Positions 8,534 through 19,950 of a stretch of 23,512 bases of DNA are shown here, in pieces. This stretch comes from a virus (taxonomy: Duplodnaviria > Heunggongvirae > Uroviricota > Caudoviricetes). Each line of letters begins with the position of its first letter. Within the stretch, counting starts at the first letter, position 1. The notes beneath the pieces were generated by a model. That model was not told where the DNA came from, did no database searches, and worked only from the letters and a program-made list of their open reading frames with translations. A program made the translations under genes and the position numbers. Location of the stretch: the IMG/VR virus record IMGVR_UViG_2531839455_000001; one strand, written 5' to 3'.

Positions 8534-9475
8534 ATGAGCACTAAATTAACCGGCTATGTATGGGATGGTTGCGCTGCATCAGGCATGAAGTTATCCAGCG
8601 TGGCAATTATGGCCCGCCTGGCTGATTTCAGTAATGACGAAGGTGTGTGCTGGCCATCAATTGAAACCATTGCCCGTCAGATTGGCGCGGGGATGAGTAC
8701 CGTCAGAACGGCTATCGCACGGCTGGAAGCAGAAGGCTGGTTAACGCGTAAGGCGCGTCGCCAGGGTAACCGCAATGCGTCGAATGTTTATCAGCTTAAC
8801 GTTGCGAAGCTTCAGGCAGCGGCATTTTCTCAACTGTCAGATTCTGACCCGTCAAAATCTGACGCATCAAAATCTGACCCGTCAAAATTTGATGCGTCGA
8901 AATCTGGCAAAAAAGCGGGTTTTCACCCGTCAGAATCTGGCGGGGATCCGTCAGTAAAATCAAAACATGATCCGTCAGATAAAAAACCTTCTCGTCCGGA
9001 CGCTTCGCAACCGGACACGCAGACGGCTGAACAGGATTTTTTAACTCGCCATCCTGATGCGGTTGTATTCAGCCCTAAAAAGCGCCAGTGGGGGACGCAG
9101 GATGATTTGACCTGCGCACAGTGGCTCTGGAAAAAAATCATCGCCCTGTACGAGCAGGCTGCCGAATGTGACGGCGAGGTGGTTCGTCCCAAAGAACCGA
9201 ACTGGACAGCCTGGGCAAACGAAATTCGCCTGATGTGTGTGCAGGATGGTCGTACTCACAAACAAATCTGCGAGATGTACAGCCGCGTCAGCCGCGATCC
9301 GTTCTGGTGCCGTAACGTGCTCAGCCCGTCGAAGCTGCGGGAAAAATGGGATGAGCTTTCCCTGCGCTTATCGCCGTCCGTAAGCACGTACACCGAAAAA
9401 CGCGAAGACCCGTACTTCAAATCCAGTTACGACAACGTGGACTACAGCCAGATCCCGGCAGGATTCAGGGGGTGA
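8534..9475 (+). CDS. Lambda O-like replication initiator (N-terminal winged-helix), 313 aa, iterons embedded
   Basis: N-terminus ...DEGVCWPSIETIARQIGAGMSTVRTAIARLEAEGWL...; central repeat-encoded segment DPSKSDASKSDPSKFDASKS coincides with DNA iterons. Confidence 0.7.
   Translation: MSTKLTGYVWDGCAASGMKLSSVAIMARLADFSNDEGVCWPSIETIARQIGAGMSTVRTAIARLEAEGWLTRKARRQGNRNASNVYQLNVAKLQAAAFSQLSDSDPSKSDASKSDPSKFDASKSGKKAGFHPSESGGDPSVKSKHDPSDKKPSRPDASQPDTQTAEQDFLTRHPDAVVFSPKKRQWGTQDDLTCAQWLWKKIIALYEQAAECDGEVVRPKEPNWTAWANEIRLMCVQDGRTHKQICEMYSRVSRDPFWCRNVLSPSKLREKWDELSLRLSPSVSTYTEKREDPYFKSSYDNVDYSQIPAGFRG
8828..8990. repeat. Iteron array (putative prophage ori) inside replication gene
   Basis: Tandem ~15-bp units TCTGACCCGTCAAAA / TCTGACGCATCAAAA / TCTGACCCGTCAAAA / TTTGATGCGTCGAAA and degenerate copies (..CCGTCAGAATCT.., ..TCCGTCAGTAAAATC.., ..TCCGTCAGATAAAAAA). 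Confidence 0.6.
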
Positions 9476-9490
9476 TCATGAGTCTGTTAA

Positions 9491-10009
9491 ATGACGTTCA
9501 GAAATTCATTGAAGCCCAAAGATATTGTTGGTGTATGGACCGTATGTCACGGGCATATTGCACCGCCAGATATTCCGGCAGGCTTCGTGGCTGTTTTCAA
9601 CAGTGATGAGGCATCGTGGCATCTCGTTGAAGACCATCGAGGTAAAACGGTTTATGACGTGGCATCAGGGGACGCGTTATTTATTTCTGAACTCGGTCCG
9701 TTACCGGAAAATGTTACTTGGTTGTCACCGGAAGGGGAATATCAGAAGTGGAACGGCACAGCCTGGGTGAAGGATACGGAAGCAGAAAAACTGTTCCGGA
9801 TCCGGGAGGCGGAAGAAACAAAAAACAGCCTGATGCAGGTAGCCAGTGAGCATATTGCGCCGCTTCAGGATGCTGCAGATCTGGAAATCGCAACGGAGGA
9901 AGAAACCTCGTTGCTTGAAGCCTGGAAGAAGTATCGGGTGTTGCTGAATCGTGTTGATACATCAACTGCACCTGATATTGAGTGGCCTGCAATCCCTGTT
10001 ATGGAATAA
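9491..10009 (+). pseudogene. Tail fibre assembly (Tfa) gene remnant: conserved C-terminal portion only, fused to an unrelated short N-terminus
   Basis: ...[35 protein letters not shown]...[16 protein letters not shown]...[22 protein letters not shown] matches the recalled Tfa C-terminal domain; canonical Tfa N-terminus absent; no tail fibre gene upstream. Confidence 0.65.
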
Positions 10010-10562
10010 TCGTTCCTGTTGTAGCCACAGTCACGTCATATACAAGAACTTGCCGGCCTAAGAAGAGTTCGTGCTGATTTTGAATATAAAATCAGCATTA
10101 CAACGCCCGAAATACCCAGGCTAAAAAATTTCTTAGGACATTATCAGCTGGCGATACATAGATGGACTGGATACTAGACCGATAGAGGCGCTGTATGCGT
10201 CATCTTGTCGTGATGCTGGCGAAGTTGTGCGAACGAAGTATTAACTTTTGCAGCCTAGCTGATTCAATTGATGCAGCCACACTAACGGGGCGCTTTTTTC
10301 CATGTAATGGTTGTAGAAGATGTTACTGAGAGGGATTAAATGAAACAGCAAATACGTCATATGTTAGAGCATGTTGTGGTTGACTGTTGAACACACCTAT
10401 CACAAATGTGCTTCTTTAGAAAGAGAATTTACATAAGCAAATTGCAACATGTTTTTTTTCTGAGTAAATAGTATGATTAACAATGCTGACTACCATTTTC
10501 TTACATGGCGAACCTAATTAAGAATTAAACGCGAGTAGATTACCCGCTTTAGAGGAGGATTT

Positions 10563-11504
10563 ATGTCCGGTTACTGTTTTTACTCTCAGGATGCATTAGC
10601 CTTAGCCCAGGCAGCTGGTGTTGATGTAATAATAAACGAGTATGCTGAGAAGAATAAAAAACAGACATATGTTCTTTGTCGTCCCCTGTCAAATGAGGAT
10701 GTAAAGTATGATTATGACCAAGCGATAGCGGTATTTTCGGCTGGTATAAAACCTTTTTTTATGAATTTAGGAGATGACGTCGAACTCTTTGAAGAGTATC
10801 AAGAGGATTTTCTAGAGGATGTATCATATTTAGCAGAGAAATTTAAGTATCGTAGTAAAATTGGAAGAAAAAAGACATGGCAAGATTTATTTGAAGTACT
10901 TTCTGTTGGTGATGCCGATTTCAGTAAGCTGGAGGTTGAAACTAAAGAAAGTAGAATAATTGATTTGCTAATCTCGCTTATTGTGGGAAGTATTAACGAT
11001 ACTTCAAGAATTAATCTTGAAGCAAGTAATTTATTAGATACAATAAAATCAAAGATTATTTTATTTGATACTGATCAAACAAAATTCGTTTTCCAAAGTG
11101 GAATTGGAAAAAAGACTGTAATACAAGGCTTGGCTGGTTCGGGGAAAACAGAACTCCTTTTACATAAATTAAAAGAGGTTTATTTAAGGAACCCTGATGC
11201 TAAAATTGCATTTACTTGTTTTAATAAAATACTTGCATCTACAATGAGAACTAGGATACCAGAGTTTTTTGATTTTATGCGAGTGGAAAAGCAAATTGAA
11301 TGGGGTACGAAACTTTTTTGTTTTAACTCTTGGGGTTTGACTAAAGATCCCTTTTCTGGGATGTATAGATATATATGTCATTATTACGAAATTCCATTCG
11401 GTGGTTTTGGCAACGGAGATTTCGATGCTCTTTGCAAAAAAGCCATTTTGGATATAAAAAAAGTGGGCGGTCTGATGAAAAAGCTCTCGATTATGTGTTT
11501 ATAG
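10563..11504 (+). CDS. UvrD-like SF1 helicase, N-terminal segment (unknown ~190-aa N-domain + Walker A); reading frame ends shortly after an A7 run
   Basis: AGAGGAGG RBS before ATG; Walker A GLAGSGKTELLLHK (nt ~11127-11168); AT-rich; frame continues sensibly in the -1 frame after 11456-11462. Confidence 0.7.
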   Translation: MSGYCFYSQDALALAQAAGVDVIINEYAEKNKKQTYVLCRPLSNEDVKYDYDQAIAVFSAGIKPFFMNLGDDVELFEEYQEDFLEDVSYLAEKFKYRSKIGRKKTWQDLFEVLSVGDADFSKLEVETKESRIIDLLISLIVGSINDTSRINLEASNLLDTIKSKIILFDTDQTKFVFQSGIGKKTVIQGLAGSGKTELLLHKLKEVYLRNPDAKIAFTCFNKILASTMRTRIPEFFDFMRVEKQIEWGTKLFCFNSWGLTKDPFSGMYRYICHYYEIPFGGFGNGDFDALCKKAILDIKKVGGLMKKLSIMCL

Positions 11505-12550
11505 ATGAAAGCCAAGATTTTCCACAAAGCTTCATTGAACTATGTGAAATGGTTACATCTAAAAAACTATATGTAGCGGGCGATGTATTTCAAAATATAT
11601 TTATGCCGATTAATGATAACGTGAATCGAGCAGATATAGTTCTTAAAAAATGTTATCGCACAGATCCAAAGAACTTAATGTTTTCTCATGCACTAGGAAT
11701 GGGACTTTATGAGAAACCGGTGCTTCGGTGGTTGAAAGAGACTGAGTGGGATTCTTGTGGATATAAATATAATAAGGTTGGGGATAGAGTACATTTATCT
11801 AGGGATCCGTTAAGACGCTTTGAAGATATTCCAAAAAATCATAAAAGTACGGCTATTCATTTACTAAAAGAAGTGGATAATGGTCCTGATAAAATAGTTG
11901 AAATTATTAAGGATATTCAGGCCCGCAATCCTACTTTAGAGCAAGGAGATATAGCAGTCATTTTCCTTGATGCTAGTGGTTATATTTATGATTATATTCA
12001 ATCACTAAAATCAAAAGTCAAGTTGCAGCTTGGTTGGGACTCTAATATTTCACATGAGACAAAATCAAAACAAGATGGGAAGCTTTTTATTTCCAATATA
12101 AACAATGCAAAAGGGCTTGAGTTCCCATTTGTTATTTGTTTTGCTATGAAATTAGTAAAGAGAGCAAACTTTCGAAATGCTCTGTATACTATGATGGCTA
12201 GATCTTTTTTAGAAAGCCATTTAGTTTTAAATAATGATAATGAAAATCCGGCAATGCCTACTATTATTGAAGGTTTAGATTTTCTCAATAAAAATGATTA
12301 TATGGATGTAAGACTTCCGTCGGATGAGGAAATAAACAATCAAAAGGATTATATTATTTTGGATGAGTCTACCTCTATTAATCAAATGGTTAGAAAATAT
12401 TGTGAAGATAAAAAATCCACACCTCGCTTAATAGCAAAAGTTACTCACACTGTAGAAACTATAATAGCAGGTCTTGATGATGATGATGTCGATGATGACT
12501 ATATAAATAGATTGATTGAAATAGAATATATAAGGAATAAAAAGTTATGA
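11375..12550 (+). CDS. UvrD-like SF1 helicase, C-terminal segment (helicase motifs II-VI); meaningful coding begins near 11462
   Basis: Motifs DYVFIDESQDF (II), YVAGDVFQNIF (III), CYRT (IV), AKGLEFPFVICF (VI); first ~29 codons of the ORF are an out-of-frame overlap with the N-terminal segment. Confidence 0.7.
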   Translation: MSLLRNSIRWFWQRRFRCSLQKSHFGYKKSGRSDEKALDYVFIDESQDFPQSFIELCEMVTSKKLYVAGDVFQNIFMPINDNVNRADIVLKKCYRTDPKNLMFSHALGMGLYEKPVLRWLKETEWDSCGYKYNKVGDRVHLSRDPLRRFEDIPKNHKSTAIHLLKEVDNGPDKIVEIIKDIQARNPTLEQGDIAVIFLDASGYIYDYIQSLKSKVKLQLGWDSNISHETKSKQDGKLFISNINNAKGLEFPFVICFAMKLVKRANFRNALYTMMARSFLESHLVLNNDNENPAMPTIIEGLDFLNKNDYMDVRLPSDEEINNQKDYIILDESTSINQMVRKYCEDKKSTPRLIAKVTHTVETIIAGLDDDDVDDDYINRLIEIEYIRNKKL

Positions 12551-13185
12551 GTTTTTATTTCTTTAATAATGTACCTACAGTGTACCTTGAAAAGTTCTGC
12601 GCTGTAAGAGATGCATTTTCCAATCTGGAAAATCTTCTTATTGCTGCGGAAATTATAAATACATGTCATGACTGTTGGAATAAAGAAACAAATGATTTCG
12701 ATTTGCTAATAAGTACTGGTACTCATAAGCGAATTCTGGTGAGGAAACCGGATGGTTTTTTTTCTATGAATTTACCATTTCAAGTAATTGAGTATGAAAG
12801 CAATATCTGTTTTAACTATGATGCCTATGGGCTTCCTGTTAATGCAGAGTTTATTTCTCGATGCAGGAATGTAATAAATACTTGCAGTAATGGCGCTTTT
12901 TCTCAGGAGGCAATTGCTCTTGAATTGTGTGATAACTTTGATCGAGATATTCAAAGTGCTATAAATTATGCTGATGCAATTTGTTCATTGTTGTTAGTTG
13001 ATCATGGGTATTTTAGGTTTGATGATGATCCTAAAAATGCGAAGGATAAAGTGCATCCAAGATATCACTTTGATTTTTTCTTCAATAATTCTACTAATGT
13101 AAAGATAGGCTGTAATACTCGTTTGGATGAATCATTTTTTTTAGAACTATTTGATGTAAATAAAGACCGCCCCTATCTGGCTTGA
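12547..13185 (+). CDS. Hypothetical 212-aa protein, translationally coupled partner of the helicase
   Basis: ATG overlaps helicase stop (ATGA); AT-rich, Cys/His/Asp-rich (LVDHGYFRFDDDPKNAKDKVHPRYHFDF); strong hairpin directly after stop. Confidence 0.65.
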   Translation: MSFYFFNNVPTVYLEKFCAVRDAFSNLENLLIAAEIINTCHDCWNKETNDFDLLISTGTHKRILVRKPDGFFSMNLPFQVIEYESNICFNYDAYGLPVNAEFISRCRNVINTCSNGAFSQEAIALELCDNFDRDIQSAINYADAICSLLLVDHGYFRFDDDPKNAKDKVHPRYHFDFFFNNSTNVKIGCNTRLDESFFLELFDVNKDRPYLA

Positions 13186-13187
13186 AT

Positions 13188-13213
13188 TATAAGCGCCCAT
13201 CAGGGCGCTTATA
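13188..13213. terminator. Stable hairpin (11-bp stem) immediately 3' of the cassette; no U-tract
   Basis: TATAAGCGCCC-ATCA-GGGCGCTTATA. Confidence 0.3.
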
Positions 13214-13635
13214 GGGTGAGATGAGTATTATAAAGAGTCTGTTTTGGGTAGTGTTTTTATAAATATTTACATATATCATAACTTTTGCCAATGTAATATT
13301 TGAATTCTTCTATTACGTATTTAAGTATCGTTTGGCTTTTTTTCTTTGGCTATCCTGCACTCAATAAGCATAAAAATCCATTTACATTGTTTTTGCATAT
13401 GACATGTTTTTAATTGTTCGAATGGATCGTGTTAGTACTATTTTATCTGGTAAAAAGCAGATGTAGATATTAGGAAGTTTTTTTTGAATGATAATGGAGC
13501 AATTAAGATTTTTTATTCTAACCATTCCCTAGAAATACTCTGCCTAAAAAATAGACATAATATGGCAACCATAATAGGCCGGTTTTTGGTGGCATGAAAG
13601 GATTTTTAATCCTTGTGCCTGACACCTTATCATGA

Positions 13636-14504
13636 TTATGAAAGACCGTAGTATTTATTTAGCGCGGTGGTAGCGGCTTGAGTTGCTACAGCTATTCCTA
13701 TACCCAAAATACCATGGGCTGCTTTACTTGCAATATTTGCCAGCCATTTACTAACAGATTGACCGTATTCATCACGTCTGTTAGCTATCGGGCCATCTTC
13801 ACCAATAGCAATTTCTAAATCGTTTACATCAGATTTAGGAAACCCCTGAGCTAAGAGATATTCTTTTAATGATTCAATGTTGTTTTTTACGATATGGTTA
13901 TTCACAGAAAATGAGTTTTCATTTCCGAAGTTTATAACAGTATTGTCTCCAAAAATTGAGTTATGAAACAATGAAGACGTGTCGATATTTTTAAGTTTTT
14001 CTGTCATGTTTTTCTCATCTGATATTTCAGAAACTTGATCAGAAAGTTCAAGTATAAAATCAAGTAGCCGTGATCTGACCTGAGTTAAGATGGAAGTGAA
14101 GTTATGTAGCGCGATCTCTTTATAACAGCATGTTAACTCATAGCCTCTATCGATACCTTTGCAATATTTAACTAATGCATAATCTAAAGGAATTGGCTGC
14201 TGCAGGGTATGGCTATCACCAGCATTGGTTACTAGGTCTTCGATTTGACTGATTGAAAGTCTAACTTTACTGGTTGTAGCATCTTCATAGTCATCTTCAC
14301 TGAGATAGCCAATCGGTAAAGGAAAAGCTCTATATAGGCGAATGCCATTGTTCAGATCTGCAAGAATTCTTGTGCCAACAATTCTATAATCGGGAAGGGA
14401 AACTGAATCAGAATAACCGTTTATCTCATGATTTACCCATGCAGCAAGCTCCTTTTTCCCGATAGAGAAAAGAAGGATCTTTGTTTTTATGAGAGCATCT
14501 GTTG
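13636..14504 (-). pseudogene. Abi-like gene (AbiTii-type N-terminal domain suspected), 3' portion; gene split by IS66-family insertion
   Basis: Minus-strand frame is open from the IS boundary (14504) to the stop at 13636 (...KELAAWVNHEINGYSDS...MTEKLKNIDTSS...AAHGILGIGIAVATQAATTALNKYYGLS); the ORF track shows only the distal 123 aa because there is no in-frame ATG upstream. Confidence 0.6.
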
Positions 14505-14534
14505 GTAAGCGGCTCGTCAGAACCGTATTGATAT

Positions 14535-16106
14535 TTACTGAGAGCTCAGATCAACTTTCCAGGGCAACAGATCGCGTACCCGGTTTGCCGGCCAGTCCTG
14601 GATATGTTCAATGACGTAGCGCAGCCACTTTTCTGGCTCCACATTGTTCAGACGGCATGTGCCGATCAGCGAGTACAACACCGCCGCATGTTCACCACCG
14701 CTGTCGGAACCCGCGAACATCCACTTTTTCCGGCCTACGGCCACTCCCCGTAAGGCGTTCTCTGCGATGTTGTTGTCGATTTCCACCCAGCCATTACTGC
14801 AGTACACGTTCAGTGCATCCCACTGTTTCAGCAGGTATGCGAACGCTTTTGCCGTATCTGAGTGACGCGACAGTGTTTTCATCTGTTGCTGTATCCAGTC
14901 ATACAGTGACTGCATCAGTGGCGCGGCTCTGGTTTTTCTTGCCGCCAGACGCTGTTCTGCTGAACAGCCCCGGACCTCTGCCTCGATGGCATACAGTTCA
15001 CCGATACGCTGCAGGGCTTCCGTGGTGATGTCGGTGGGCGCTCTTGCATGCACATCGTGGATTTTTCTCCGGGCATGAGCCATACACGCGGCTTCCGTTA
15101 TTCTGCCGGATTCGTATAACGCCCGGTAACCACCGTAAGCATCGGCCTGAAGCACACCGCTGTAACCGGCCAGGTGATTTTGTGGATGGATACCTTTCCG
15201 GTCCGGACTGTACGCGAACCAGACCGCCGGGGGCATCTGTGAACCGGCGTTACGGTCATCACGGACGTAGACCCACAGCCGGGCTGTCCGGGTTTTACCG
15301 CTGCCCGGCTCCTGGACCGGGACGGGGATATCATCAGCATGGACTTTACCGGGCATCAGCACATACTGGCGCAGGACGTCATACAGCGGCTCCAGTAGTT
15401 CAGCAACGGCACCTGTCCAGCGCCCCAGTGTGGCACGGCTCAGCTCCACACCCTGACGGCGGTATATCTCTGACTGGCGGTATAACGGCAGATGGTCTGC
15501 ATATTTTCCGGTGACGACATGGGCCAGGAGCCCCGCTCCGGCATAACTGCGTGCAATGGGTTTTGAAGGTACTGGTGCCTGCACGATATGGTCGCACCGA
15601 CAACAGGCCAGTTTCGGACGTTGTGTTTCGATAACCTTAAAGGCGCTGCTGATAAGCTCCAGTTGCTCTGACACATCACATCCCAGAGAACTGAGTTCAC
15701 CACCACAGGCAGGACAGCATTCCTCTTCCGGCCGGATAACCCGGGTTTCACGGGGAAGTGAGGCCGGTAACGGTTTACGGGCTGAAGACTGGCGCAGGGC
15801 GGATGGCAGTACCGGGTCATATTGCTCACCCAGCGTTTCCGCCATTTCTTCCTGAAGTGCGCTGATTCGCTCCTGTGCTTCCTGTATCTGCCGTTCGGTT
15901 TTTGCACGAAGTTTTTCTGAGCTTTTACCGAACTGCATACGTTGCAGTTTCGCAACCAGCGCCTTCAGCCGGTTGATTTCGGAAGCATAAGCCGCCACCC
16001 GCTGTGAGAGCAGGCGGTTGTATTCAGCCATCTGGCGTATGGTGTCCTGTTGCGTCTGCAACAGTGCCCGCAGGCGGGCGTTCTCATGAGCAAGTGAGGT
16101 GTCCAT
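14535..16106 (-). CDS. tnpC: IS66-family transposase TnpC (523 aa)
   Basis: [20 protein letters not shown]... with leucine-zipper-like N-terminus, CxxC...CxxC zinc-finger and DDE-type core, matching recalled IS66 Orf3. Confidence 0.9.
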
Positions 16107-16125
16107 ATCCTCACTTTACAACGGG

Positions 16126-16473
16126 TTATATGCGGATTCCAGCGCGTTCCGTTCGTTTCGGGTGCTTCCAGTTGATACCTTCAAGAAGCATGGATAACTG
16201 AGCCGGAGTAAGGTGCACCTTGCCGTCACGGGTGACTGGCCAGACGAAGCGGCCCCGCTCCAGGCGTTTGGTGAAGAGGCACAGTCCGTCACTGTCAGCC
16301 CACAACACTTTTATCTGGTCACCCCGGCGTCCGCGGAAGATGAACAGGTGTCCGGAGAACGGGTCATCCTTCAGGACGTTCTGAACTTTTGATGCCAGGC
16401 CGTTAAAGCCATTTCGCATATCGGTGATACCTGCAACCAGCCAGATACGCGAACCTGCAGGGAGAGATATCAT
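16126..16473 (-). CDS. tnpB: IS66-family TnpB (Orf2), 115 aa
   Basis: MISLPAGSRIWLVAGITDMRNGFNGLASKVQ...GHLFIFRGRRGDQIKVLWAD..., the recalled conserved IS66 Orf2 signature. Confidence 0.85.
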   Translation of the reverse strand: MISLPAGSRIWLVAGITDMRNGFNGLASKVQNVLKDDPFSGHLFIFRGRRGDQIKVLWADSDGLCLFTKRLERGRFVWPVTRDGKVHLTPAQLSMLLEGINWKHPKRTERAGIRI

Positions 16474-16679
16474 CAGTGGCTGCTCCCTTTTATTTCGCGG
16501 ATAAGTGTCTGTAATAACGCCGGCGTCAGTTTACCTTTAAGCCTGAGAGTTCCGGCCGGCAGAACCAGCTCACAACACAGACTGTCGGACGGTGTATTTA
16601 TCTGCTCTGGTTCCTGTGCGGGGGCCGGGATTTTATTATCCGGCTCCGGCGTTAACGTCACGGGAAGCAGTGCCGGCAT
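16473..16679 (-). CDS. IS66-internal small ORF (68 aa), stop overlaps tnpB start; possibly part of the accessory protein
   Basis: ATGA overlap with tnpB; Pro-rich; no in-frame ATG upstream; uncertain. Confidence 0.3.
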   Translation of the reverse strand: MPALLPVTLTPEPDNKIPAPAQEPEQINTPSDSLCCELVLPAGTLRLKGKLTPALLQTLIREIKGSSH

Positions 16680-16809
16680 ATTTTTTCCGGAAGGCAGCAG
16701 GCCACCTTTCCGGTATTGATGGTCGCCAGTTGAAGAGCAGGTTATCGTTGATTCCGTTTTCCCGGGGCGATCTGCGCCACACAGGCTCCGGGCTGCAGTG
16801 ACTGCTCCA

Positions 16810-17154
16810 CTAAGGCGATTTTAAACTCATAAGGGAAGTTGGGCCGCCGGGGGACGTTTTTTTACCACGGGGGCGTTCGGATATAACGGTGCTTTCAGGA
16901 CGTACGACTGGTACCGTGGAAAATTGTCCGTAAAGGCAGGCATCAAGTTCCTGCTCCGACATGCCTGCGGGCAAAGGCCACGAAAGGCCAGCTCTCCGAA
17001 AGCGCACGAACATACTACAAACTGTTGATTTTGGTACACCCAGGCGACGCCCGGCCACAACCCGGGGTAAATGTTCTTCAAAGTGAAGACGTAAAGCTTC
17101 AGTGATCCAGGTCCGGTGTTTCATACGATAGTGTCCATTAAAAATGATGGACAT
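16810..17154 (-). CDS. tnpA: IS66-family accessory protein TnpA (Orf1), HTH-containing, ~104-114 aa
   Basis: First ORF inside the left IR, same strand as tnpB/tnpC; HTH-like ...LGVPKSTVCSMFVRFRRAGLSWPLP...; alternative start MKHRTWITE at 17124. Confidence 0.5.
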   Translation of the reverse strand: MSIIFNGHYRMKHRTWITEALRLHFEEHLPRVVAGRRLGVPKSTVCSMFVRFRRAGLSWPLPAGMSEQELDACLYGQFSTVPVVRPESTVISERPRGKKTSPGGPTSLMSLKSP

Positions 17155-17462: not shown

Positions 17463-17849
17463 TGACACGTCGTATGCAAGAACTTGCTGCGGCTGGATGG
17501 TGGACTTTCGATAGTGCGAGTATTGAATGATTTCCATCTATTACAGATTTTACCGTATTTCGGCATGAATGAAACTGAATATCCTCCCACCGACCCTCCA
17601 TGACTTTACACCACTGTCTCTGGGGCTGCTATGTGCCAAGAGCGGACGTTACAATCATCAGCCTATCCATTAACTAATGGGAATAGGTCACGATAGTTGT
17701 TGAATGAGCCCTTGTATAGTTTCAAAAATTGCTTTGATTTAATACATTGATACTGTTAGATTCTGAAGGATCCTATCAGTTTTAACACAATAGGTTTGTA
17801 TAAAAACATCCTGCAGCGTTTCAAATATTTTTCATGAGGTATTTATAAA

Positions 17850-18956
17850 ATGATTACTAGTGGGTATTTAATAGGACAGATAATTGACGACCTATCAAAT
17901 ATAGCACAGCAAGCAAAAGTCAGAAACAAACTTGGACATACTGATTTATCTGTGTTTGCTGAGAATTTTTTCAAGGATATACTAAACGAGACACTGGAAC
18001 TATCCTTAATAAACACTAACATAACAAGAGCTAACGAGCCTGGTATAGATCTTGCTGATATGGCAAAAAAAACAGCATTCCAGGTCACAACTGACAAAAC
18101 AAGTAAAAAAGTAATAAACACTCTTGAAAAAATAACATCTGAACAAAGAAATAATTACCGCCACTTCAATATTTTGATAATAGGTGATAAACAAGATAAG
18201 TATGAGGCTGTAACGAAAGCTTTAGCTAACAGAAGTGATACCGAAGAATCTTATGATGAAAGTGAAGAAGAACAAAAAAGTAAGATTCATAAAGATATAG
18301 TATTTGATCCAAACGAAAACATTATGGATTTGACTGACTTATTCCGTAAAATAATTGGGTTAGATTTGGTGAATATCCAAAAAATCCATAGCATCATCCA
18401 AAAAGAAGGCGCGAAAGTCAAAATTGAGCTTCAGGTCCCTGATGAGAATGGTGAGTTTCAAACGAATGGTTATGATCTTTGGGAATCACGTCCAAAAAAA
18501 CAACTTAGCGATGGGGTCATTTTCAGTAACTGGGAAGCTGCACAAGGCGGAGCAGTAGCCACACAAGAAGCAATTGATAAAACTAAGAAAGACATTGAGG
18601 AATTAGCGAGTCGCCTTTATTCCTTGCCACGAATAACACGCGAGTTTCTAGCAATGCTTTATGAGCTGGCTAACTATAAACGTGAACGATATGATGAGCA
18701 TCCAAGTATTTTCTATAGTTTTGTTAAAAAAACTTACCCCAATGCAGACGAAGAGATAAAATTACTGCTATCTCATGAGTTAATCGATATGGACTCTGAA
18801 CAAAAAGACACCGAAAGGTTTGTGGATACCGAGATTGGGTTATGTTTTTCTCTTCCATACAAGTCTTACCTAAATTTAGGGTTCTATAACTTTGTAAATG
18901 AAAATAAAATTTTATTTCGTGACGTAATTGGAAAGGTGGATTTTTCATGCTTCTAA
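17850..18956 (+). CDS. Hypothetical AT-rich 368-aa protein (orphan cargo gene next to attR; possible abortive-infection/defence protein)
   Basis: Clean ORF with GAGGT RBS 9 nt upstream; Lys/Glu/Asn-rich; no recognisable phage structural or housekeeping motifs by eye. Confidence 0.7.
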   Translation: MITSGYLIGQIIDDLSNIAQQAKVRNKLGHTDLSVFAENFFKDILNETLELSLINTNITRANEPGIDLADMAKKTAFQVTTDKTSKKVINTLEKITSEQRNNYRHFNILIIGDKQDKYEAVTKALANRSDTEESYDESEEEQKSKIHKDIVFDPNENIMDLTDLFRKIIGLDLVNIQKIHSIIQKEGAKVKIELQVPDENGEFQTNGYDLWESRPKKQLSDGVIFSNWEAAQGGAVATQEAIDKTKKDIEELASRLYSLPRITREFLAMLYELANYKRERYDEHPSIFYSFVKKTYPNADEEIKLLLSHELIDMDSEQKDTERFVDTEIGLCFSLPYKSYLNLGFYNFVNENKILFRDVIGKVDFSCF

Positions 18957-19623: not shown

Positions 19624-19679
19624 ATTCGTAATGCGAAGGTCGTAGGTTCGACTCCTATTATCGGCACCATTAAAATCAA
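19624..19679. repeat. attR: exact 56-bp copy of thrW 3' end + 10 nt (partial tRNA-Thr, not a functional gene)
   Basis: Identical to 1399-1454; lacks the tRNA 5' half. Confidence 0.85.
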
Positions 19680-19950
19680 ATTGTTACGTAAGATCTTATC
19701 ATTCTCCCACCAAAAAATTATCTTAATGTAACAGCTGGTGTAAGTAAATTCTATCAACGAAGATCAATCTTATCTACTGACCAAAAAGGCCTGATAGGGC
19801 TTCGCTCACTATACATCCTTGGCTGCAGGTTTAGTTGTACACCACTCCTAAATTTAATGTGTTGGCAATGTGTTCAATAAAGCTCGAACAAATTAGCTCA
19901 TTATGATCGGTTAATACTTCAACTTCTGGTTGCATGATTGTTTGTCCGTA

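Follow-up and report, generated by a model that had tools for sequence, protein, structure and literature searches.

The closest described relatives of the locus reported here belong to the Helicase+DUF2290 class. The validated system of this class, pFR91, comes from a P4-like satellite of Klebsiella pneumoniae SB5961 and blocks T7 (Rousset et al. 2022, PMC9122126); its helicase carries an N-terminal NERD domain, recognised with an HHpred probability of 98.1% (Rousset supplement, PMC9122126). The supplementary hotspot table of the same study lists, as entry 119, a Vibrio K139-like prophage cargo described as 'DUF2290 | NERD/AAA_19/UvrD_C', with 26 occurrences (PMC9122126). The PA1372/PA1371 pair of PAO1 has also been assigned to the class (PMC11637435), and the cost of plasmid pNUK73, the high rep expression and the SOS induction seen in PAO1 depend on this pair (PMC4410645, PMC11637435). 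Our literature search on Helicase+DUF2290 found no published mechanism. Here, we analysed IMG/VR virus record IMGVR_UViG_2531839455_000001, a stretch of 23,512 nucleotides that we refer to as the window, which carries on its plus strand an AT-rich two-gene cassette (10563-13185) composed of a helicase gene followed by the gene of a small partner protein. The cassette adds a new candidate member to an established class of defence systems and does not reveal a novel type; judged by sequence and profile comparison, the pair belongs to a second, divergent branch of Helicase+DUF2290 that had been catalogued already.

The first gene (10563..12550, plus strand) encodes a superfamily 1 (SF1), UvrD-like helicase of the STM2767 family, whose intact allele is 662 aa long (WP_000017384.1), and the second (12547-13185, plus strand) encodes a 212-aa DUF2290-like, STM2766-family helicase-associated protein (WP_000011690.1). 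The start of the partner gene overlaps the helicase stop as ATGA, as a first-pass annotation made from the letters alone had read it. Both proteins score far above the cutoffs of curated NCBIfam equivalog models that encode this very pairing: the helicase reaches 903.7 bits with NF053713 (STM2767 family DEAD/DEAH box helicase; cutoff 550) and the partner 202.9 bits with NF053714 (STM2766 family helicase-associated protein; cutoff 70). These models differ from a system assignment in that their names have no functional or defence annotation, and a literature search on the STM2767/STM2766 locus tags found no functional reports. Over the 399 available residues of the Vibrio entry 119 helicase, our helicase shows 47% identity starting at residue 1, the N-terminal domain included (E 9e-117), and the partner profile aligns over its full length with the entry 119 DUF2290 protein (hhalign probability 98.7%, E 2.7e-16). 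The two pairs thus represent the same subfamily and are both prophage cargo, although they differ in host clade and prophage type, and the Vibrio listing is bioinformatic only.

The relationship with the validated system is more remote. The helicase profile matches the pFR91 helicase over 301 columns at 27% identity (hhalign probability 98.8%, E 9e-17), whereas the partner's own profile gave no match to the validated DUF2290 protein (probability 0.4%); a broad profile of the partner superfamily aligned with that protein over 47 motif columns only (probability 58%, E 9.8e-5). Three hhalign tests compared the N-terminal profile of our helicase with the N-termini of three type-A helicases, which carry NERD, and detected no similarity. 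The two systems nevertheless share their gene order, with a helicase followed by a partner of ~210-220 aa (the construct lists the helicase first and DUF2290 second), a UvrD-like helicase with an extra N-terminal domain of ~180 aa, an RFDxD...HPxxH...K/R-I motif of the partner superfamily at a similar place (aa 155-203 vs 134-182) and a position as cargo of prophage or satellite hotspots. They differ in that the N-terminal domain of the window helicase has no detectable sequence similarity to the NERD domain, the window partner matches neither the Pfam nor the PADLOC version of DUF2290, and D176, invariant in the superfamily, is Thr in the validated protein. The close match to Vibrio entry 119, the distance from the validated system and the lack of detectable N-terminal similarity to NERD together lead us to place the pair on a divergent branch. 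The first-pass annotation had described the cassette as uncharacterised and as impossible to place in a named system; neither view holds, since a member already stands in the table of Rousset et al. 2022, NCBI models exist for both proteins, and the class in question is one that the annotation itself had named as an analogue.

Two better-known systems were considered and set aside. Gabija (GajA/GajB) and Hachiman (HamA/HamB) resemble our pair in their two-gene architecture and in the logic of sensor helicase plus effector that we propose below. However, no OLD/TOPRIM GajA is encoded and GajB models match the helicase weakly through generic UvrD motifs (E 1.8e-5 or worse), and neither protein matches DUF1837/HamA or the superfamily 2 helicase HamB. 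The Pfam and PADLOC searches thereby bear out the by-eye impression that OLD/TOPRIM and DUF1837 signatures are missing.

The partner belongs to a superfamily that is much larger than standard models suggest. Pfam returned two chance-level matches for the window protein (E 0.19 and 0.33) and none to PF10053 at E<=1, and no PADLOC model, those for DUF2290 included, matched at E<=1. The same was true of PF10053 and the PADLOC DUF2290 models for seven distant partners of ~25% identity from Bacteroidota and from Firmicutes and Acinetobacter plasmids. A word-indexed homologue search was misleadingly narrow, with only 43 close clusters; the superfamily was exposed only by an exhaustive profile search, which yielded 636 representatives (counted at 50% identity), nearly all stand-alone proteins of ~200-240 aa, spread over Proteobacteria, Bacteroidota and Firmicutes. 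Among 54 sampled distant relatives (17-30% identity), 10 matched Pfam DUF2290 (best E 9.7e-8) and 11 matched PADLOC DUF2290 (best E 3.1e-9), and no other family recurred. These matches fall at positions ~95-165 of the Pfam profile, which correspond to the segment that carries the partner signature GYFRFDDD-x8-HPRYHFD-x9-KIG (13006..13110, plus strand), a putative active or binding site. In an alignment of 55 sequences, R62, P77, Y155, R157, D161, H170, P171, H174, D176, K186 and G188 are invariant and D159 is nearly so. The signature segment lies on three consecutive predicted strands (residues 155-160, 173-179 and 183-189), and a PDB sequence-profile search with the partner gave no match; for its fold, too, the PDB offers no match.

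The helicase contains the complete SF1 motif set, and every motif quoted in the first-pass annotation was found at verified coordinates, all on the plus strand: Walker A or motif I GLAGSGKT (11127-11150), invariant in 36 homologues; motif II DYVFIDESQDF, a Walker B of the DExQD type (11489-11521); motif III YVAGDVFQNIF (11570-11602); the CYRT motif (11651-11662); and motifs V/VI (12107..12202), comprising AKGLEFPFVICF at 12107-12142 followed by FRNALYTMMAR. Pfam recognises UvrD_C_2, UvrD-helicase and AAA_19 over residues 183-555, with UvrD_C_2 spanning residues 508-555, and found no match in residues 1-180. The top PADLOC model is 'Helicase' (PDLC03002, E 3.6e-32), a partial match to profile positions 181-370 of 707 whose accession number adjoins those of the DUF2290 models, and the second is 'NERD+UvrD'. 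The core starts with a Q-motif-like segment, ILFDTDQTKFVF (IILFDTDQTKFVF), at 11055-11093 (plus strand, coordinates verified), in which L167, F168, D169, T170, D171, Q172, T173, F175, V176 and F177 are invariant; it is assigned by analogy with the LNxxQxxAV segment of UvrD/Rep/PcrA. Because this motif begins at residue 165, the N-terminal region outside the core measures ~150-165 aa. The first-pass annotation was right to postulate an extra domain without familiar motifs but too generous with its size, which it gave as ~190 aa. At the other end, a C-terminal extension of ~100 aa (12239..12547, plus strand) has no family match and is less constrained than the core, with a ratio of nonsynonymous to synonymous substitution rates (dN/dS) of 0.08-0.20 vs 0.01-0.03.

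The N-terminal domain itself (10563..11000, plus strand; aa 1-146) has an alpha/beta fold and a basic motif, KFKYRxKIGRKKxW. A PDB sequence-profile search found nothing for it, and its top structural matches in two independent searches were Schlafens. The eukaryotic Schlafens SLFN11, SLFN12 and SLFN14 combine an N-terminal RNase core with a C-terminal SF1 helicase domain, and they share with our protein the order of a nuclease-like N-terminal domain before an SF1 ATPase.

Pairing of the two genes is strict. Helicase and partner are adjacent and co-oriented, in this order, in 34/34 complete loci from three phyla, typically with a 4-nt overlap. This set comprises 18 close loci (among them Salmonella, Pantoea, Klebsiella, Aeromonas, Pseudomonas, Vibrio, Xanthomonas and Rheinheimera), 7 distant loci (Bacteroidota, Firmicutes plasmids and one Acinetobacter plasmid), 6 viral contigs found by a scan with a helicase alignment, the locus L035, and two further plasmid records from Salmonella and Pantoea; one locus at a contig edge (L019) was left out. 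The identities of the two proteins drop in parallel, from 87%/84% to 54%/42% for helicase/partner, and the distant helicases, measured in two loci of Bacteroidota type (L022 and L023), remain ~40% identical over their full length. With orthologues from Salmonella, Pantoea and Klebsiella as the reference, both genes have a dN/dS of 0.03-0.10, which argues that they are not chance open reading frames (ORFs), and the GC content of the pair stays at ~0.33 in hosts of much higher G+C. Both genes are real, constrained and horizontally moving. The tight translational coupling and strict co-inheritance, together with plasmid and prophage copies near the toxin-antitoxin genes pepG1 and hicB, would also fit an addiction module that stabilises a prophage or plasmid, in which the helicase would restrain a toxic partner and no invader would be sensed directly. 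However, a 662-aa motor with all its ATPase motifs conserved is atypical as an antitoxin, and the helicase alone is frameshifted or lost while the partner is retained, both in the window and in Xenorhabdus (L011); loss of the helicase would leave an unchecked, lethal toxin. We therefore regard an addiction function as very improbable.

The distribution of the pair is sparse and patchy. The cassette occurs in 32/5426 complete Escherichia coli genomes (0.6%), always on the chromosome, so that the presence/absence check proposed in the first-pass annotation identifies it as accessory, and a pattern scan found the pair in 14/100,044 species representatives. UvrD-like motifs alone could suggest a helicase operon of the core genome with a housekeeping role in DNA repair. 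This explanation, which the first-pass annotation had named as an outcome that would overturn its proposal, is rejected on the distribution just given, and we assign it a negligible probability; moreover, the pair always lies in low-GC islands or mobile elements, and even the full helicase profile matched no PDB sequence at E<=1e-3.

In the window, the cassette lies in a decayed prophage of 18.2 kb bounded by 64-bp direct repeats that are 95% identical (attL/attR, 1399-1462 and 19624-19687) and correspond to the 3' part of tRNA-Thr. The order of features is proA, tRNA-Thr, integrase, early and replication genes, a truncated tail-fibre-assembly gene (tfa), the cassette, an AbiTii-like gene, a SMEK-domain gene and a CP4-6-like element, and the location between replication module and attR that had been read from the sequence is thereby confirmed. 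Intact lambdoid prophages have the order J, lom, stf, tfa, helicase pair, AbiTii and attachment site, and such a prophage lies at ssrA in strain 3985. From this order we conclude that the element in the window is a deletion derivative with its cassette in the classical right-end cargo slot, after stf-tfa, before attR and beside AbiTii, where the first-pass annotation had also suspected a cargo slot. A different slot is used in myovirus prophages of Klebsiella type (L029 7626-12394; L032; L010), in which the pair lies in the tail module between a gpU-like tail protein gene and a gene for a tail collar fibre that points the other way. A metagenomic phage carries the pair upstream of its large terminase gene.

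These positions bear on whether the pair serves the mobile element itself, for example as an accessory replication or recombination helicase with its loader or regulator, acting in the replication or maintenance of phage or plasmid DNA. On an 11.8-kb plasmid of C. perfringens, the pair comes immediately after the gene of the replication initiator, genes for serine recombinases are often found beside the pair, and the related PAO1 helicase PA1372 raises plasmid rep expression, all of which would suit such a role. Nevertheless, the pair occupies cargo positions, after tail fibres or inside tail modules, and not replication modules; some copies stand in chromosomal islets whose surroundings lack mobile-element genes; and a homologous system blocks T7. 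In addition, a tblastn search with the partner matched none of 50,697 deposited phage genomes, which argues against a core phage function. A role in the service of the element is, in our judgement, improbable.

The neighbourhood of the pair points towards defence at some loci. In Xanthomonas hydrangeae (L007 11004-14509), it stands directly beside a complete Hachiman system (HamA and HamB), a separate system; on a plasmid of Lacticaseibacillus paracasei, it is near type I restriction-modification genes, and on a Lactococcus plasmid near genes for a DNA methyltransferase and a DEAD/DEAH helicase. The other flank of the X. hydrangeae locus holds X-Tfes/XVIPCD type IV effector genes and SymE-like toxin genes. 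By description, the PAO1 pair is similar: PA1372/PA1371 likewise forms a horizontally acquired low-GC islet in which a UvrD_C-type helicase and a small partner are always together, but what it is known to affect is the cost of a plasmid, rep expression and SOS rather than phage.

Taken together, we consider it probable that the pair is a defence or anti-mobile-element (anti-phage or anti-plasmid) system of the Helicase+DUF2290 class, carried as prophage-borne cargo. The first-pass annotation had likewise proposed a defence operon, and the prophage and plasmid contexts, the Hachiman and restriction-modification neighbours, the rarity of the pair and the homology of its helicase to that of an anti-T7 system all speak for this part of its account. 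Several findings weigh against the defence assignment. The 149 flanking ORFs at 16 loci are mixed: some are defence or methyltransferase genes, but many have housekeeping functions, and since the latter kind of neighbour is seen at many loci, the signal of a defence island is local, not universal. The subfamily is known from sequence alone, the phenotypes on record being those of relatives, and the only tested relative is remote, with helicases 27% identical and partners related through the 47-column motif. Furthermore, a lactococcal 'DUF2290/Helicase' failed to protect against the phages used to challenge it (PMC11381338), the window helicase has a frameshift, and a simple sigma-70 scan upstream of the operon revealed no convincing promoter. 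With these points taken into account, the defence assignment is plausible and ahead of its rivals in support.

How such a system might work can be outlined from the conserved features of both proteins, although any specific division of labour between them is tentative and, on balance, doubtful. The translationally coupled helicase and partner might form a complex. The SF1A motor, with its strongly basic N-terminal domain of nuclease-like fold, would load onto the DNA of an invading phage or plasmid, at ends or at intermediates of replication, and its engagement would activate or release the DUF2290-like partner. In the partner, R62, R157, D161, H170, H174, D176 and K186, together with D159, look like the site of a metal-dependent hydrolase; the activated protein would damage nucleic acid, so that replication of the invader is blocked or the cell is killed. 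Such a combination of sensor helicase and effector would resemble the logic of Hachiman HamAB or Gabija. We further speculate that the partner, with its R/D/H/K cluster on three adjacent strands, might be a nucleic-acid hydrolase of unseen fold licensed by a helicase whose N-terminus is like the Schlafen RNase core; the system would then be a prokaryotic analogue of Schlafen-type immunity, with a mechanism unlike that of the NERD-bearing type-A systems. This more specific idea is a long shot.

The broken helicase frame in the window requires separate consideration. The ORF list divides the gene into two frames, 10563-11504 and 11375-12550, owing to a -1 frameshift at a run of seven A residues (A7; 11449-11455, plus strand) where intact alleles have eight (A8), and the cassette accordingly measures 2,623 bases in the window and 2,624 in the intact locus L001. 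Alignment of these two shows a single 1-base gap and otherwise 100% identity, and restoring A8 yields the 662-aa protein WP_000017384.1; the 'frame-corrected' helicase to which the first-pass annotation alluded is thereby explained. Sequence identity across the whole window is ~100% for six complete E. coli genomes. One of them, TW11681, aligned base by base, has A8 and an annotated intact helicase, and it differs from the window by one substitution and five single-base indels. One indel is the A-run deletion (11455), and the other four are insertions in the window (16723, 16764, 16849 and 16875), clustered in a 150-bp stretch of an IS66-family tnpA that is intact in TW11681. This clustering of single-base indels makes a homopolymer-type assembly error an apt explanation, and mis-assembly is more likely than an inactive system in the strain.

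The alternative is that A7 is real and the cassette a decaying pseudogene remnant in the source strain, in which the helicase is not made and the pair has no current function. In its favour, the gene is split by the frameshift, the prophage around it is in an advanced state of decay (loss of structural genes, a truncated tfa, an AbiTii gene cut by ISCro1), and the pair decays elsewhere as well, the partner being frameshifted in E. coli S1-NGR-02-A (L002 5149-5786) and the helicase fragmented in Xenorhabdus hominickii (L011 476-2608). In the latter, the partner is full-length by tblastn, and an ORF with an ATG/GTG start covers only 139 aa. Because the independent IMG/VR contig L031 shares A7, we retain a real lineage-specific pseudogene among the readings. 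Nevertheless, A8 and an unbroken gene are present in TW11681 and in three more complete genomes that match the window at 100% identity, the missing base is all that separates the cassette from intact alleles, and the four further insertions in tnpA are typical of homopolymer sequencing errors. We therefore think it unlikely, though well worth bearing in mind, that the cassette is a pseudogene.

The cassette forms the centre of a low-GC island, with a GC content of ~0.33 for the cassette itself, 0.31-0.36 across 10.5-14 kb and 0.31-0.40 across 10.0-14.5 kb, against ~0.50 in the flanks. A Shine-Dalgarno sequence read from the letters, AGAGGAGGA (10551-10559, plus strand), lies 3 nt 5' of the helicase ATG at 10563; both the island and its strong ribosome-binding site had been described correctly from the sequence. 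The operon is preceded by an AT-rich non-coding leader (10010..10562, plus strand), which is kept with the cassette in other prophages: the spacing between tfa and the helicase gene is ~553 bp in L001 and L035 as well, and a query of 10400-13400, which takes in the 3' part of the leader, is 99-100% identical in 30/32 carrier E. coli genomes. Directly 3' of the partner stop codon, a hairpin with a 12-bp stem (13187-13214, plus strand) folds with a minimum free energy of -21.3 kcal/mol (z -4.4; 0/200 shuffles fold as well) and likely marks the 3' end of the operon, although the lack of a T-run means that it is not a canonical intrinsic terminator. An Rfam search of the cassette found no RNA family.

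Between the truncated tfa and the cassette lies the remnant of a DNA invertase of Gin/Pin type (10195-10300, plus strand), recognised in a 44-aa ORF (10195-10329) that matches residues 70-104 of Gin invertase (E 6e-6). In Salmonella LT2, STM2766/STM2767 presumably lie a few genes from hin-fljBA, and this closeness and the invertase remnant may reflect a shared ancestral prophage end.

Other features of the window complete the picture of a layered integration site. The truncated tfa (9557-10009), just upstream of the cassette, contains a full-length Rfam match to IS009 (9768-9966, plus strand, 220.9 bits). Further upstream, a 313-aa helix-turn-helix gene of replication type (8534-9475) includes six overlapping 30-nt repeats (TCAAAATCTGACCCG-like) at 8822-8944, mostly spaced by 15 nt, which resemble the iteron origin embedded in lambda gene O. 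Downstream of the cassette, the AbiTii-domain gene (13636-14533, minus strand), 306 aa long when intact in other strains, is split by an insertion of ISCro1 (IS66 family; 14536-17151), and elsewhere an AbiTii gene accompanies the helicase pair in lambdoid prophages at three integration sites. The SMEK-domain gene (17847-18953, plus strand) follows 3' of the cassette; in HCP5S3_I4 (L001 16025-19134), a SMEK gene is followed by an AAA-ATPase and S8-peptidase pair, which may resemble the IetAS defence pair. Beyond attR, a second element, CP4-6-like (ykfI/yafW and others), indicates tandem occupancy of the thrW site.

The continuing interest of the pair lies in a class for which our literature search found no mechanism, in a partner with no structural relative and in a superfamily that largely escapes standard models. 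The Helicase+DUF2290 class is much wider than current detection models capture, as most sampled relatives of the partner fall below the Pfam and PADLOC thresholds for DUF2290, and our results suggest that annotation would gain from a link between the NCBI 'STM2766 family helicase-associated protein' and the defence class of DUF2290. The invariant residues of the superfamily provide a short list of point mutants for a first mechanistic test, and the E. coli/Salmonella subfamily, with its native host, small operon and intact alleles in sequenced enterotoxigenic and extraintestinal pathogenic E. coli strains, offers a convenient experimental entry to the class.

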